A stretch of DNA of 24,185 nucleotides from Candidatus Shapirobacteria bacterium (GTDB taxonomy: Bacteria > Patescibacteriota > Microgenomatia > UBA12405). The translations under genes were made by a program, and so were the position numbers. Of this stretch, positions 4,020-9,740 are shown piece after piece. Within the stretch, counting starts at the first letter, position 1. Every line of letters starts with the position of its first letter. The notes under the pieces were generated by a model. The model searched no databases, was not told the DNA's origin, and worked only from the letters and a program-made list of their open reading frames with translations. The stretch spans positions 1 through 24,185 of the forward strand of contig JAGVHP010000034.1 of assembly GCA_020056515.1 (NCBI GenBank). Reading direction: 5' to 3'.

Positions 4020-5443
4020 CTAATGCAGCTGGTTTTCTATGGCTTCAAGGATGCAATCGGCTTCTTCCCGGGTCATATCGGCACAAGGGGCCAGCCGGAT
4101 GGAAATATCTCCGGCAGTCAGAAAAATAATATGTTCGTTTTCGATCATGCGTTTTTTGAAGGCATCTCGAGTCTCGGAATTTACAAAACTCCAGGCCAGA
4201 TAGCCGGCATCGGATCTCCCCCGGGCATTGGTTAAAAGATGAGGGTATTTCTTTACCATTTTTTGCATAGCGGCGAGAATATGTTGAGTAATATCAATGG
4301 CATTTTTATATAATTTTTTCTGCAATACGGTTTGAACAATGGCATATCCAGTGGCCATCTGACTGATGTGGCCAGTCCAGGTGCCACCAAGCCTTTTGGG
4401 GCCATGGGTATCAACCCAATTATTTTCAAAGCCACGATTGAGTTTGGTAAAGTCGCGAACCATAGTGCCATTGACGTGAAAAATCTTGCCAAAAGTGATG
4501 ATGTCGGCAAACTTCAATACCTCTTTCGCAAAGGGCGATACAAAATTACCATCTATTGTCCAGGCGCGGCCGCCCATTTGAACACAATCGGCTACCAGCA
4601 CCTTGCCATACTTTTGACACAAATCATGAAGATAAGAAAAAGTTTGCGGATTGATTATACGAGCCCCGCCTTCGGCCTGCATGGGACATTCGGATACTAT
4701 ATAGGCAAAATTGTCATTTTTCAATTTTTCCTCAACCTCTCTCACCGATTGCTCAAAAACTTCTTGGGTTTTTTTTCGTCAACGTTACCTGAAGTGTCGT
4801 ATTGTAAAATTGGGGCGGTAACATGGACAGTTCGGCCGGTATGTTTGTGACCTACTTTGTCAATATTAGCCGTACCTTCGGCACCATGGCCATAGCGTCC
4901 GTGAAAGGCGCCCTCGAAGGCAATTCCTTTTAATTCTCGAGGCTCCTTTTTTAATTTATCAGCGACTTGGCCAATGGCAATTTCCATGGCATCATCGGTA
5001 GCTAACCCGCCGGCGCTAACTGGTAAAATCTTGTGAGCATCCGACCAAAAACTTTTCATCATGTCTACAAAAGCGGCTTCGATTGACATTTTGTCTTCAG
5101 TGGGGGTGCGATCTTCCTGGGCCAATTTACCGATTAACTCCAAATAGGCAGGACTTCGTAATTGTTCGTGTTTTTCGGCGTCCAGAAGATCGGTCATCCA
5201 ACTAAAAGTGGCATCCAAATAAGTTCCCTTGGTGGTAAAAAGGTAAGGACCATGTGACTTAATAAGGTCGACGGCACCGATGTCATAGCGGCCGCTGGGG
5301 TGAGAAAAATGTTCAAGATAGTCGGGGTCGTCTCGGAGGAGAGCTTCCCCTTGGGTAAACATTTGGGACAATAATGGAGAGGGGGTTCCGGTTAACTGGG
5401 GGTAGGTGGCGGGCTTGAAGAGTGGTGTTATTGATTTGGTCAT
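4020..5443 (-). pseudogene. Class III PLP-dependent aminotransferase (lysine-6-/GABA-aminotransferase-like), split into ORFs 4742..5443 and 4020..4745 by a frameshift in an A8 run
   Basis: The N-half has AFEGAFHGR. The C-half has ECPMQAEGG, ADCVQMG (DEVQTG-like), PLP lysine in TFGK and RLGGTW. Real start ATG 5443 (MTKSITP); the longer track ORF runs through a tRNA. One extra A at 4769-4776 fuses the halves. Confidence 0.8.
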
Positions 5444-5552
5444 ATTTCTTACAATAATAATGGTGAGGAGATTATAAATCTTTTTATTTAATACAGCACC
5501 TTGTTGACCTTCTTTTTCAAAATATACACACAAATCAATTGAGAAGAATAAG

Positions 5553-5637
5553 CGGAGAAGGCGAGATTCGAACTCGCGAGGCCTTTTGGGCCGCAGACTT
5601 TCCAGGTCTGTGCAATGAACCACTATGCGACTTCTCC
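5553..5637 (-). tRNA. tRNA-Ser(GGA)
   Basis: Acceptor GGAGAAG/CTTCTCC, anticodon arm CAGAC-CT-GGA-AA-GTCTG, long variable arm, TTCGAAT T-loop, discriminator G; no encoded CCA. Confidence 0.96.
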
Positions 5638-5650
5638 AATTGAAATCTTC

Positions 5651-6088
5651 CTATTTTACCAAACTTGCTTCAAAACCAAGTTTTTTTATTATCACGGCAT
5701 TAAGCCGGAGAAAAGCTTCTTTGCTGACATAGCGGATTTTGCACGTTCCTAATGGGTTAGGTTTGTATTTCGAAGTTTTGGCTTTAAGGATGATTGTTTT
5801 ATGAAAATTTTCCGGAGAAATATTAGTGGTATTTGACCAAAATATTTTGAGTTTTTCCTTGTCCATATCCGGATATAAAAACAATTCACTTTTTAGTCTT
5901 TTCTCATCAATTTTTATGATTTTTCTTAAAAACTCCAAAAATAGTTTTACTAAAACAGGCTCTGAATTTGTAAACTCAATCGCATATAAAAAAGTATTTC
6001 CATTGGGATATCTTGTATCTTTTCGCAATTTAGTGCCTTCGCATTTGTATAGGACGGCACCTGCTAATTCCAAACCAGAAGTGTTCAT
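5651..6088 (-). CDS. LAGLIDADG-like (homing-endonuclease-fold) protein, single domain without N-terminal HTH
   Basis: LAGAVLYKCEG helix followed by IEFTNSEPVLVKLFL, FWS and GTCKIRY; aligns by eye over ~120 aa with 8882..9571. The fold call comes from motif recognition, not an HMM. Confidence 0.65.
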   Translation of the reverse strand: MNTSGLELAGAVLYKCEGTKLRKDTRYPNGNTFLYAIEFTNSEPVLVKLFLEFLRKIIKIDEKRLKSELFLYPDMDKEKLKIFWSNTTNISPENFHKTIILKAKTSKYKPNPLGTCKIRYVSKEAFLRLNAVIIKKLGFEASLVK

Positions 6089-6585
6089 CTCGATTTATTG
6101 GTTTTTAATAAAGAATTGAGTTTGGAGGTAGCCTTTTTTAAAAGAATTTTTTCAGAAGAATAGCTAAGTTTTTTTAAGGCTTCTTCGAGAGGTAGCCACT
6201 CACGCTTTAAAACAACTTCCCGATCAGAATAATTTAGGTCACTATCTTTTTGATATTCCATTAGGAAAAAGGTAACTTTTTTGATGATTTTGGAGCCGGA
6301 GTTTTTGTCCCAAAGAACATAGTCATTGGAACCAATTTTGGCAACGATTTTACCATTAACCCCCCCTTCTTCTTCGACTTCACGGAGAGCGGCAGGTTTA
6401 AGGGATTCATTGGAGAGGAGATGGCCTTTGGGAAATTTGTAGGCAGTTTTGTGGCCGACTCCACCAAGGCGGGAAAGAGATTTTTTGGTTAAAGTTTTAA
6501 TAAGCAGCCAACGGATTTGATTATCAATTAAGCGGTAAACAATACCGCCAGCGGAACGTTCGTCGTAGTTATTTTGGTCTTCCAT
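6085..6585 (-). CDS. NUDIX hydrolase (Ap4A-hydrolase-like)
   Basis: ERSAGGIVYR start, FPKGHLLSNESLKPAALREVEEEGG Nudix box and KKVTFFLM. Confidence 0.9.
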   Translation of the reverse strand: MEDQNNYDERSAGGIVYRLIDNQIRWLLIKTLTKKSLSRLGGVGHKTAYKFPKGHLLSNESLKPAALREVEEEGGVNGKIVAKIGSNDYVLWDKNSGSKIIKKVTFFLMEYQKDSDLNYSDREVVLKREWLPLEEALKKLSYSSEKILLKKATSKLNSLLKTNKSR

Positions 6586-8183: not shown

Positions 8184-8269
8184 GGAAGGGTGCGGCGAAT
8201 GGTAAGCCACGGGTTTGCTAAACCCGCGTCAGAAATGGCATGAGGGTTCGACTCCCTCCCCTTCCGCCA
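8184..8269 (+). tRNA. tRNA-Ser(GCT)
   Basis: Acceptor GGAAGGG/CCCTTCC, anticodon arm CGGGT-TT-GCT-AA-ACCCG, long variable arm, encoded GCCA end. Confidence 0.94.
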
Positions 8270-8296: not shown

Positions 8297-8818
8297 ATGC
8301 CACAAGAGGAAATAGAAGATTTACGGGAAGAAAAAATACTGTTTGAATGGACGGCGCCGGAGAGAGCATTTCAGAGACGGGATCGGGATTTTTGGATTAC
8401 GGCGGTGGCAATTTTGGTGCTGGTAGGAGTGATATTAATATTTATTAAAGAATTTTTCTTAATTATCGCCTTGGGTTCAATACTGTTTTTGTACTATGTG
8501 ATGTCAACAGTAGAACCAGCTAATATTAAAAATAAATTAACCAATCGGGGAGTGTATTTTGGTGAAGCTAGATATGAATGGATTGATTTACGGCGTTTTT
8601 GGTTTAAAAAAAGTTTATCGAGCCAAATGCTGGCGATTGAGACCAATTTGCGGTTTCCCAGACAAATAGCACTGGTAATAAAAAGTGAGGATCAGGAAAA
8701 AATAAAAGGGATAGTAATTAAAAGAATTCCATTGTTGGAAGAGTCACCGACTTTTGTGGATAGATTGGCCAAGAGAATGGCGACGATGTTGCCACTGGAA
8801 GACAGGAAAAAAAATTGA
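8297..8818 (+). CDS. Conserved hypothetical membrane protein (two TM helices + soluble C-terminal domain)
   Basis: 173-aa ORF with LFEWTAPER motif, a hydrophobic hairpin and a leaderless-type TGcTAAGAT promoter. Confidence 0.75.
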   Translation: MPQEEIEDLREEKILFEWTAPERAFQRRDRDFWITAVAILVLVGVILIFIKEFFLIIALGSILFLYYVMSTVEPANIKNKLTNRGVYFGEARYEWIDLRRFWFKKSLSSQMLAIETNLRFPRQIALVIKSEDQEKIKGIVIKRIPLLEESPTFVDRLAKRMATMLPLEDRKKN

Positions 8819-8843
8819 CATAGATTGGTATTTGGACTAAAGT
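8815..8843 (+). promoter_or_regulatory. Sigma70-type promoter TTGACA-N17-TAAAGT upstream of the HTH-LAGLIDADG ORF and tRNA pair
   Basis: Consensus -35 at 8815-8820, 17-nt spacer, -10 at 8838-8843. Confidence 0.6.
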
Positions 8844-8881
8844 ATAGTTACTACACCTGATACTCTGGGGTTTGAATAAAT

Positions 8882-9571
8882 ATGTACTCAAAAGATATTA
8901 GAGAAAAATCTAGAAAAATGCGGGTTGAAGGATTTAGCTTGGGAAATATTTCCAAAAAATTAGTAATTCCTAAAAGTACTCTTTCTTTGTGGTTGAAAGA
9001 TATTCCTAAGCCCAAGAATTTATATTATACGAATCAAAAAGAATGGTTGGTTAAAATACGGATTTTAGCGGCTGATGCTAATAAAAAGAAGCGACAAGAA
9101 GTGATTGAAAAGATATCTGACGAGGTAAGAAAAGATGTAGAAATATGGGATCTTTCATCTCCACAGATTCAAAAAGCGATATTGGCAACTTTGTATTGGG
9201 CAGAAGGAACCAAAGGCAGAGATGTGCTTCAGTTTGCAAACACTGATCCACGTCTAATACTGCTGTTTGTAACCATGCTACGGAATAATTTTGAACTAGA
9301 TCAATCGAAATTCAGGGTCAGATTACATTTACACTTTTACCATCGGGAAAAGGAAGTAAAAAAATTCTGGTCACAACTTCTTAATATTCCGGAAAGTCAG
9401 TTTAACAAAACCTACCGTAAACACAGAAGCAAAGAAAGAACATTTCGCAGAAATATTGGCGGAATATGTTTTATTAAGTATAATAGCGTGTATCTGCAAG
9501 AAAGATTGATGAGTTACGCCCACTTACTTGCGGAGAAATTGACAGGCAAAATTAAGGTTCCCGTAGTTTAA
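8882..9571 (+). CDS. HTH + LAGLIDADG-like protein
   Basis: N-terminal HTH (GFSLGNISKKLVIPKSTLSLWLKD), then LATLYWAEG, QFANTDPRLILLF, FWSQLLNIP and GICFIKY; the last 5 codons lie inside tRNA-Arg(GCG). Confidence 0.7.
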   Translation: MYSKDIREKSRKMRVEGFSLGNISKKLVIPKSTLSLWLKDIPKPKNLYYTNQKEWLVKIRILAADANKKKRQEVIEKISDEVRKDVEIWDLSSPQIQKAILATLYWAEGTKGRDVLQFANTDPRLILLFVTMLRNNFELDQSKFRVRLHLHFYHREKEVKKFWSQLLNIPESQFNKTYRKHRSKERTFRRNIGGICFIKYNSVYLQERLMSYAHLLAEKLTGKIKVPVV

Positions 9572-9628
9572 CGGATAGAACATTGCCCTGCGGAGGCAAG
9601 GATGTGAGTTCAATTCTCACCGGGAACA
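9557..9628 (+). tRNA. tRNA-Arg(GCG)
   Basis: Acceptor GTTCCCG/CGGGAAC, anticodon arm TTGCC-CT-GCG-GA-GGCAA, T arm GTGAG-TTCAATT-CTCAC. Confidence 0.95.
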
Positions 9629-9633
9629 CACTT

Positions 9634-9720
9634 GGAGGGTTGGCCGAGTGGTTTATGGCGCACGCCTCGAAAGCGTGTGGGTGAAAACCCGCAGAGGTTC
9701 AAATCCTCTACCCTCCGCCA
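9634..9720 (+). tRNA. tRNA-Ser(CGA)
   Basis: Acceptor GGAGGGT/ACCCTCC, anticodon arm CACGC-CT-CGA-AA-GCGTG, long variable arm, encoded GCCA. Confidence 0.96.
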
Positions 9721-9740
9721 AAAATCGTTATAATGACTTT

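Follow-up and report, generated by a model that had tools for sequence, protein, structure and literature searches.

A LAGLIDADG-fold gene ending inside tRNA-Arg(GCG) in a Shapirobacteria genome, probably a homing-type element of the pre-tRNA leader

Introduction

Why should a protein-coding gene end inside a tRNA gene, and does the arrangement do anything? The question is raised by an open reading frame (ORF) of 229 amino acids, combining a helix-turn-helix (HTH) with a LAGLIDADG fold, at 8882-9571 on the forward strand of the window—the 24,185-nt stretch analysed here, which is contig C72 of G000, the 577-kb, 82% complete genome of an uncultured, ultra-small Candidatus Shapirobacteria bacterium (Patescibacteria). 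The ORF ends GTT CCC GTA GTT TAA (V-P-V-V-stop). According to translation and ARAGORN, these last five codons—the final four sense codons and TAA, at 9557-9571 on the forward strand—are positions 1-15 of tRNA-Arg(GCG) (9557-9629, forward strand), read in frame from tRNA position 1. ARAGORN finds the tRNA uninterrupted and intact; 4 nt 3′ of it lies tRNA-Ser(CGA) (9634-9720, forward strand; ARAGORN), which is also present at alleles lacking the gene and is probably co-transcribed with tRNA-Arg(GCG).

An earlier note on this DNA, which placed the stop codon correctly within the tRNA, proposed that RNase P cleavage at tRNA position +1 strips the stop from the message, so that each transcript yields either tRNA or complete protein: a built-in limiter on a potentially toxic nuclease. 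It also took the overlap as a footprint of insertion at the tRNA 5′ edge.

Homing endonuclease genes persist where host RNA or protein processing removes them, as in introns and inteins. SegB, a free-standing GIY-YIG homing endonuclease in a tRNA cluster of phage T4, spreads with neighbouring tRNA genes (PMC2330249, PMC13096335). Removal of a stop codon by RNA processing is known from arfA, where RNase III cuts at an internal stem-loop and the product goes to tmRNA, in a functional feedback loop (PMC10107115). No paper on the present family was found in the literature searched, the coverage of which was incomplete.

Results

In the closest empty relative (G018), the DUF5673 family gene is 95% identical and the tRNA is identical at 71/73 positions, without a cassette between them: the sequence follows the window as far as 8811 and rejoins it at 9557. 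There, 44 nt comprising the end of DUF5673, a ggTATAAT box and the tRNA leader correspond to 745 nt in the window. This mobile cassette (8812-9556, forward strand), delimited by blastn against L143 and by a contig joint in the independent groundwater run X3, carries a putative promoter, an operator-like repeat and the gene body. The X3 contig joins 8811 directly to 9557, and other X3 contigs carry the gene. Among the sequencing runs listed as containing this DNA, none was an RNA library. Fourteen empty alleles in the same genus share one layout—DUF5673 stop, ggTATAAT-like box, 9-16 nt, tRNA-Arg(GCG), with a gap of mostly 18-39 nt—and it recurs in most of the ~60 empty alleles of the host family. 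The cassette stands where the host had its tRNA promoter and leader, and these empty alleles bear out an insertion footprint at the 5′ edge of the tRNA.

The cassette ends are interlocked with host genes at both sides, because the −35 box contains the stop of DUF5673 and the gene end overlaps the tRNA. DUF5673 (8297-8818, forward strand) is the conserved upstream neighbour of tRNA-Arg(GCG), and the cassette takes in its final codons together with the stop (TGA, 8816-8818). Close relatives differ in the presence of the cassette at this allelic site, as expected of a SegB-like element. No self-splicing intron or intein houses the gene, which sits 5′ of an intact tRNA in a 745-nt cassette too small to include a ribozyme as well.

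Some empty alleles have leader insertions, of ~100 nt at L178, L183, L234, L240 and L244; at L158:311-424 (G008) the 5′ start of the tRNA is duplicated and the leader has gained a short palindromic repeat. Upstream, tRNA-Ser(GCT) (8184-8269) is on the same strand as DUF5673 in the window and on the opposite strand in same-genus relatives where seen, a local inversion; at L160 a GIY-YIG gene stands in place of tRNA-Ser(GCT).

The encoded protein has an HTH (residues 3-45), a long helix of 36 residues (52-87) and a single LAGLIDADG-fold domain (92-221) with the motif LYWAEGTK. AlphaFold/AF2 models (pLDDT 92 and 91) show the HTH, the 36-residue helix and an alpha-beta domain. In the structure search VIA, the top six matches and nine of the top 11 were LAGLIDADG proteins, at middling Z-scores (<8); the best was I-DmoI (Z 6.9, rmsd 2.6, 82 aligned), with WhiA at Z 6.8. 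The HTH-LAGLIDADG identity given in the earlier note thus holds by sequence for the HTH and by fold, at middling Z and without a sequence profile match, for LAGLIDADG. Pfam and PDB profile searches returned the HTH only, a LAGLIDADG Pfam is absent from the 25 families listed for 60 members, Foldseek found no match in PDB at E ≤ 0.001, and the ESM Atlas returned hypothetical-protein clusters only.

All homologues (72/72) keep E108, the acidic residue of LYWAEGTK with which the motif helix ends. If the helix has no gaps, the range offset (92 to 5) aligns E108 with the catalytic D21 of I-DmoI. Homodimer prediction scored 0.80, against 0.00 for the best control, with 91% of contacts shared between runs and pLDDT 81-82; the mark was reached by 20/30 solved homodimers and 1/23 monomers, and resemblance to LAGLIDADG dimers of known structure may account for the score. 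The predicted interface runs through the motif helix, including residues 95-108, and fold and interface extend to residue 221. Purifying selection (dN/dS 0.04-0.16 in pairs with unsaturated synonymous sites) implies that the protein is made and matters.

The tRNA-Arg(GCG) of the window (9557-9629) is a cassette-linked variant with C31, C32 and G39 in its anticodon arm. When the host family is arranged on a DUF5673 tree, the filled alleles occupy five separate positions, each with the anticodon core CCCTGCGRAGG, while the core is GTTTGCGRAAC in 55/59 empty alleles. The remaining 4/59 empties have the cassette-type tRNA and are sisters of filled alleles, the pattern that loss of the gene with retention of the tRNA would leave. 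A single clade for hosts with cassette-type tRNA was rejected (AU test, p = 0.005) on this tree, which is built on the neighbouring gene DUF5673, itself possibly co-transferred. The tRNA probably travels between species with the gene, given that the four empties with the variant are sisters of filled alleles. Co-transfer of a flanking marker is likewise a property of SegB-like elements; here the variant is common to five scattered host lineages, and the marker is the neighbouring gene.

The core of the empties occurs in 0/72 filled alleles; yet G283 (filled) and G408 (no strong hit), of one genus outside the host family, have an identical anticodon arm, so the arm is not a universal resistance determinant. 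C32 was counted by hand in 29/72 filled alleles against ~6/~105 other class genomes. The variant may be resistant to cutting, or merely hitch-hiking.

The ORF's subfamily occurs in 7/400 other genomes of the class (~2%), and some member of the family in 163/401 (~40%). Each subfamily adjoins its own tRNA (Arg-GCG, Trp, Gln, Ala, Val, Gly, Thr/Asn; also Ser), and nearly all of ~150 homologous loci examined adjoin a same-strand tRNA. The named homologues and ESM Atlas clusters of the protein point to Patescibacteria; two loci with non-CPR genome labels (L001, L002) are probably mis-binned contigs and were excluded as evidence of inter-phylum transfer. Distant members (21-38% identity; L083-L098) are found on large viral contigs among clustered tRNA genes, and several of them terminate at a tRNA or within one; such contigs are a possible vehicle or origin of the family.

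A putative cassette promoter, TTGACA-17-TAAAGT (8815-8843, forward strand), matches the sigma-70-type pattern at 10/12 positions, a match not above chance in this region; a second −10-like box, TATAGT (8843-8848), follows it. L160, L163 and L165 have the same promoter layout. Inside the gene, 72 nt before the tRNA, TTGGCG-17-TATAAT (9456-9484, forward strand; 10/12) resembles a sigma-70 site, is largely dictated by conserved codons and is a possible separate promoter for the tRNA in G000. Across the family, the internal TATAAT finds no support as a selected tRNA promoter, with no excess of TAT codons at Y200 (52/71 against a 75% background).

Around the putative cassette promoter lie operator-like inverted half-sites (8830-8877): GGAC at 8834-8837, a 32-nt spacer and GTTTGAAT at 8870-8877. 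The family consensus, ATYGAAC ... GTTCRAT, is the tRNA T-loop motif and is degenerate in G000. Of 71 upstream regions, 20 contain the pattern GRAC-N27..34-GTYC, where shuffled sequences give 1.2 ± 1.0; a comparable pair, spaced ~27 nt, is found within the tRNA gene. SegB recognises the same T-loop motif (PMC2330249), given as RAWTSGAAC (PMC13096335). I-TevI represses itself through an operator that resembles its target and overlaps the endonuclease's own promoter (PMC2988022). By analogy, the upstream repeat may be an operator mimicking the target. The likeness to I-TevI lies in a target-like operator at the endonuclease's own promoter, the target here being presumed; the nuclease family is a different one, and operator binding is predicted here from a sequence motif.

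Stop positions were compared among 72 distinct intact homologues at tRNA-Arg(GCG), with genome G192 excluded from the counts. Fifty stop inside or beyond the tRNA and 22 (31%) at or before +1, between −53 and 0. A one-off stop-loss read-through, with homologues normally stopping before the tRNA, had been the earlier note's foil, and is ruled out by these 50. Stops fall mainly at +10, +15 and +22, with extremes to +117. Entry is in frame 1 in 30 of the 50, frame 2 in 17—which mostly stop at U8-A9-G10—and frame 3 in three; the exact codon-boundary entry seen in the window is real, and special meaning for this one-in-three event is ruled out, all three frames being found. A frame-1 tRNA-derived tail is present in ~79 of the 120 best protein homologues (regex count). 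As a control, the overlap occurs in 0/~60 empty alleles, where DUF5673 stops at least 18 nt before the tRNA.

On the homologue protein tree, the state (stop inside or before the tRNA) changes at least 12 times, and sister genes differ: L008 stops at −3, L009 at +23 and L010 at +10. The overlap is a frequent, labile state and no requirement of the family. In one clade (L049, L063, L065, L069, L077, L080) the frame runs through the entire tRNA to a stop at +111 to +117, making the whole tRNA gene coding. In L007, L014, L016, L017 and L035 the stop lies 5-38 nt before the tRNA and a TATAAT/TAAAAT box ~10 nt before it, which would fit a tRNA that has reacquired a promoter.

Has the overlap been selected as a limiter, with RNase P stripping the stop codon to leave a nonstop nuclease mRNA whose SsrA-tagged product is degraded, much as for arfA mRNA? 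We consider this unlikely. The share of homologues stopping in or beyond the tRNA (69%) speaks for it, as does the clade around the ORF, which keeps the same frame and an xPV(V/A) tail down to ~50% identity. If the protein must reach residue 221, however, a median of three free codons separates it from the tRNA and 17/72 upstream stops are expected by chance, against the 22 observed. With the limit at residue 217 or 213 the expectation rises to 34 or 44, so there may be some selection against stops upstream of the tRNA. From residue 217, linker stops are fewer in frame (22) than off frame (38 and 28); this deficit, which would suit a limiter, is explained by a C-terminal helix that runs to residue 221 and is part of the predicted dimer interface.

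Unrelated genes also overlap tRNAs: 4/25 tRNAs of G000 contain the end of a gene. Besides the ORF, lgt (L260:194-823, contig C21, reverse strand) ends ~21-23 nt inside tRNA-Glu and an ASCH-like gene (L259:312-764, contig C9, forward strand) ~21-23 nt inside tRNA-Tyr, each with a −10-like box in its coding sequence ~10 nt before the tRNA. The third, a GIY-YIG gene of 85 amino acids (L261:322-579, contig C7), ends at +10 of tRNA-Cys, before which no obvious −10 box was seen; it is possibly a second nuclease family in the same niche.

The machinery that the limiter needs is present in the genus, in the form of RNase P RNA, RnpA, tmRNA and SmpB. In G000 itself, RNase P RNA scores 89 bits, below the Rfam cut-off, and RnpA is present. 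tmRNA occurs in 5/5 relatives of the genus and SmpB in 54/61; neither was found in the 82% complete G000. Lon and FtsH were found in genus genomes. ClpP, which in model bacteria is the chief protease for SsrA-tagged proteins, was found in none of five (G000, G001, G018, G019, G020), which counts against the limiter. Likely tmRNA tags in the genus end ...VGAVC and ...LALVV, the usual end being LAA. Tagging and decay of the product from a cut mRNA are plausible, since tmRNA and SmpB are general in the genus and Lon and FtsH are at hand. The alternative of 'either tRNA or complete protein' is too strong: ribosomes may arrive at the stop codon ahead of tRNA folding and cleavage, and the site at 9456-9484 could supply the tRNA separately. 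Folding of 9500-9730 (z −0.88) gave no informative structure.

The limiter has its precedent in arfA (PMC10107115), with a processing cut that removes the stop codon and, as proposed here, a product handed to tmRNA. In arfA the cut is by RNase III at an internal stem-loop, whereas here it would be by RNase P at a tRNA; and a stop downstream of the processing site is not a family-wide feature, as 31% of homologues lack the overlap and the state has changed 12 times. The built-in, selected limiter of the earlier note is not supported, because of the 22 genes that stop before the tRNA, these repeated changes, the use of three frames, and lgt and other genes that overlap tRNAs; the operator-like repeat would offer another means of control. 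Any limiting effect is probably a by-product of the overlap and not a built-in safety switch.

Discussion

The observations are best accommodated by a free-standing, homing-endonuclease-type element lodged in the 5′ leader of pre-tRNA-Arg(GCG) and rendered harmless by RNase P, a reading that we hold to be probable, with cleavage predicted. Replacement of promoter and leader, patchy occurrence, linkage to a tRNA variant, purifying selection and retention of the acidic motif residue are the observed part. The cassette promoter would drive one transcript of gene, tRNA-Arg and tRNA-Ser; RNase P, cutting at tRNA +1 whatever the length of the leader, would let both tRNAs mature normally. Insertion would then be nearly silent and of low cost, because RNase P removes the gene as an oversized leader, in the role that splicing has for intron-borne endonucleases. 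A dimer would recognise the tRNA gene, probably with its pair of HTHs on T-loop-like half-sites, and cut the empty allele, and repair would copy in the cassette with the donor's tRNA. The half-sites around its own promoter would provide autorepression.

Pinned against the tRNA, the 3′ end of the gene would often lose its own stop codon and use the first stop in the tRNA. From overlapping copies, the ORF at 8882-9571 included, RNase P would leave a nonstop mRNA ending in codon 225, which tmRNA would tag; this damping of expression would be a side effect, dispensable to the family. Two points weigh against homing: it requires a second allele to enter the cell of a bacterial chromosome, and no vehicle was found for the ORF's subfamily, the viral matches being to distant subfamilies. 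More tentatively, and with the balance of our judgement against it, the cassette might belong to a hitherto undescribed kind of homing element in chromosomes, one that hides in pre-tRNA 5′ leaders and is excised from them by RNase P, targets tRNA genes via T-loop-like half-sites, replaces the host tRNA allele and in most copies is throttled via tmRNA.

The protein could instead be a nuclease-dead or domesticated regulator of the tRNA promoter, DNA-binding like WhiA, or a factor acting on tRNA, spread by ordinary recombination. WhiA is a vertically inherited, nuclease-dead transcription factor with two LAGLIDADG domains and a C-terminal HTH. It shares the LAGLIDADG fold and an HTH with the present protein and ties with I-DmoI in the fold search; an HTH with an operator-like repeat at a putative promoter driving two tRNAs, under strong purifying selection, would suit a regulator. 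Here, by contrast, the HTH is N-terminal, the domain single and the Glu invariant, an acidic residue kept at the motif position. Occurrence is patchy (~2% of class genomes, with the nearest relatives lacking the gene), each tRNA has its separate subfamily, and repeated gain and loss has left the tRNA variant behind, which together make a regulator improbable. Plain genome compaction of a passenger gene, with no mechanistic meaning in the tRNA position, scarcely merits belief: the other gene ends inside G000 tRNAs and the use of all three frames would fit it, but it accounts for the stop codon and not for the position beside a same-strand tRNA at nearly all loci, nor for a tRNA variant that moves along with the gene, and it is weakened by the fidelity of each subfamily to its own tRNA.

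As a homing-type element, the cassette has its nearest parallel in SegB, likewise a free-standing gene beside tRNA genes, spread with a tRNA and associated with the T-loop motif (here as half-sites upstream of the gene). SegB is a GIY-YIG protein of a phage, whereas the gene studied here encodes an HTH and a LAGLIDADG fold in a bacterial chromosome; each tRNA species has its own subfamily, and the gene sits within the pre-tRNA leader, in many cases running into the tRNA. Cleavage has been shown for SegB and is a prediction here. With LAGLIDADG enzymes—I-DmoI, E-DreI and I-Tsp061I, and the single-motif homodimers I-CreI, I-MsoI and I-CeuI—the protein shares the fold, an acidic residue closing the motif helix and a predicted dimer through that helix. 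It differs from them in having no Pfam or PDB sequence match, an additional HTH and long helix, and no intron or intein; RNase P, not splicing, would remove the element from host RNA.

If this reading is true, the pre-tRNA leader removed by RNase P is a further niche of the kind that introns and inteins provide, occupied by an unannotated family. If the tRNA travels with the gene, a selfish element swaps core translation genes between species of Patescibacteria, which bears on tRNA phylogenies, and homing-type transfer occurs in reduced genomes. Long-target, tRNA-specific nucleases might be obtained from the family, and the filled and empty alleles of G000, G018 and G014 are ready cleavage substrates. 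The stop-codon overlap is by itself of modest interest, though the limiter idea can be tested directly on sister genes that differ naturally in having it. New here are the count of stop positions, the co-transfer of the tRNA with post-loss alleles, and the T-loop-like operator.

Other family members and neighbouring genes

Searches in other families gave little: a tRNA pattern search in family f22 found little, and a PF18923 search in family f18 gave 2 hits. At L014, L016 and L268 a family member precedes a tRNA called as Ser(ACT), an anticodon unusual for bacteria. The window itself holds a second family member (5651-6088, reverse strand; E 8e-19), a LAGLIDADG domain alone, without HTH, that retains the acidic motif residue. 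Its stop codon lies 13 nt short of tRNA-Ser(GGA) and its final codons include a ggTAAAAT box; its start is overlapped by a NUDIX gene (6085-6585) that lies behind tRNA-Arg(CCG). The listed start of the ORF at 4742-5623 (reverse strand) falls inside tRNA-Ser(GGA), and its real start is probably downstream.
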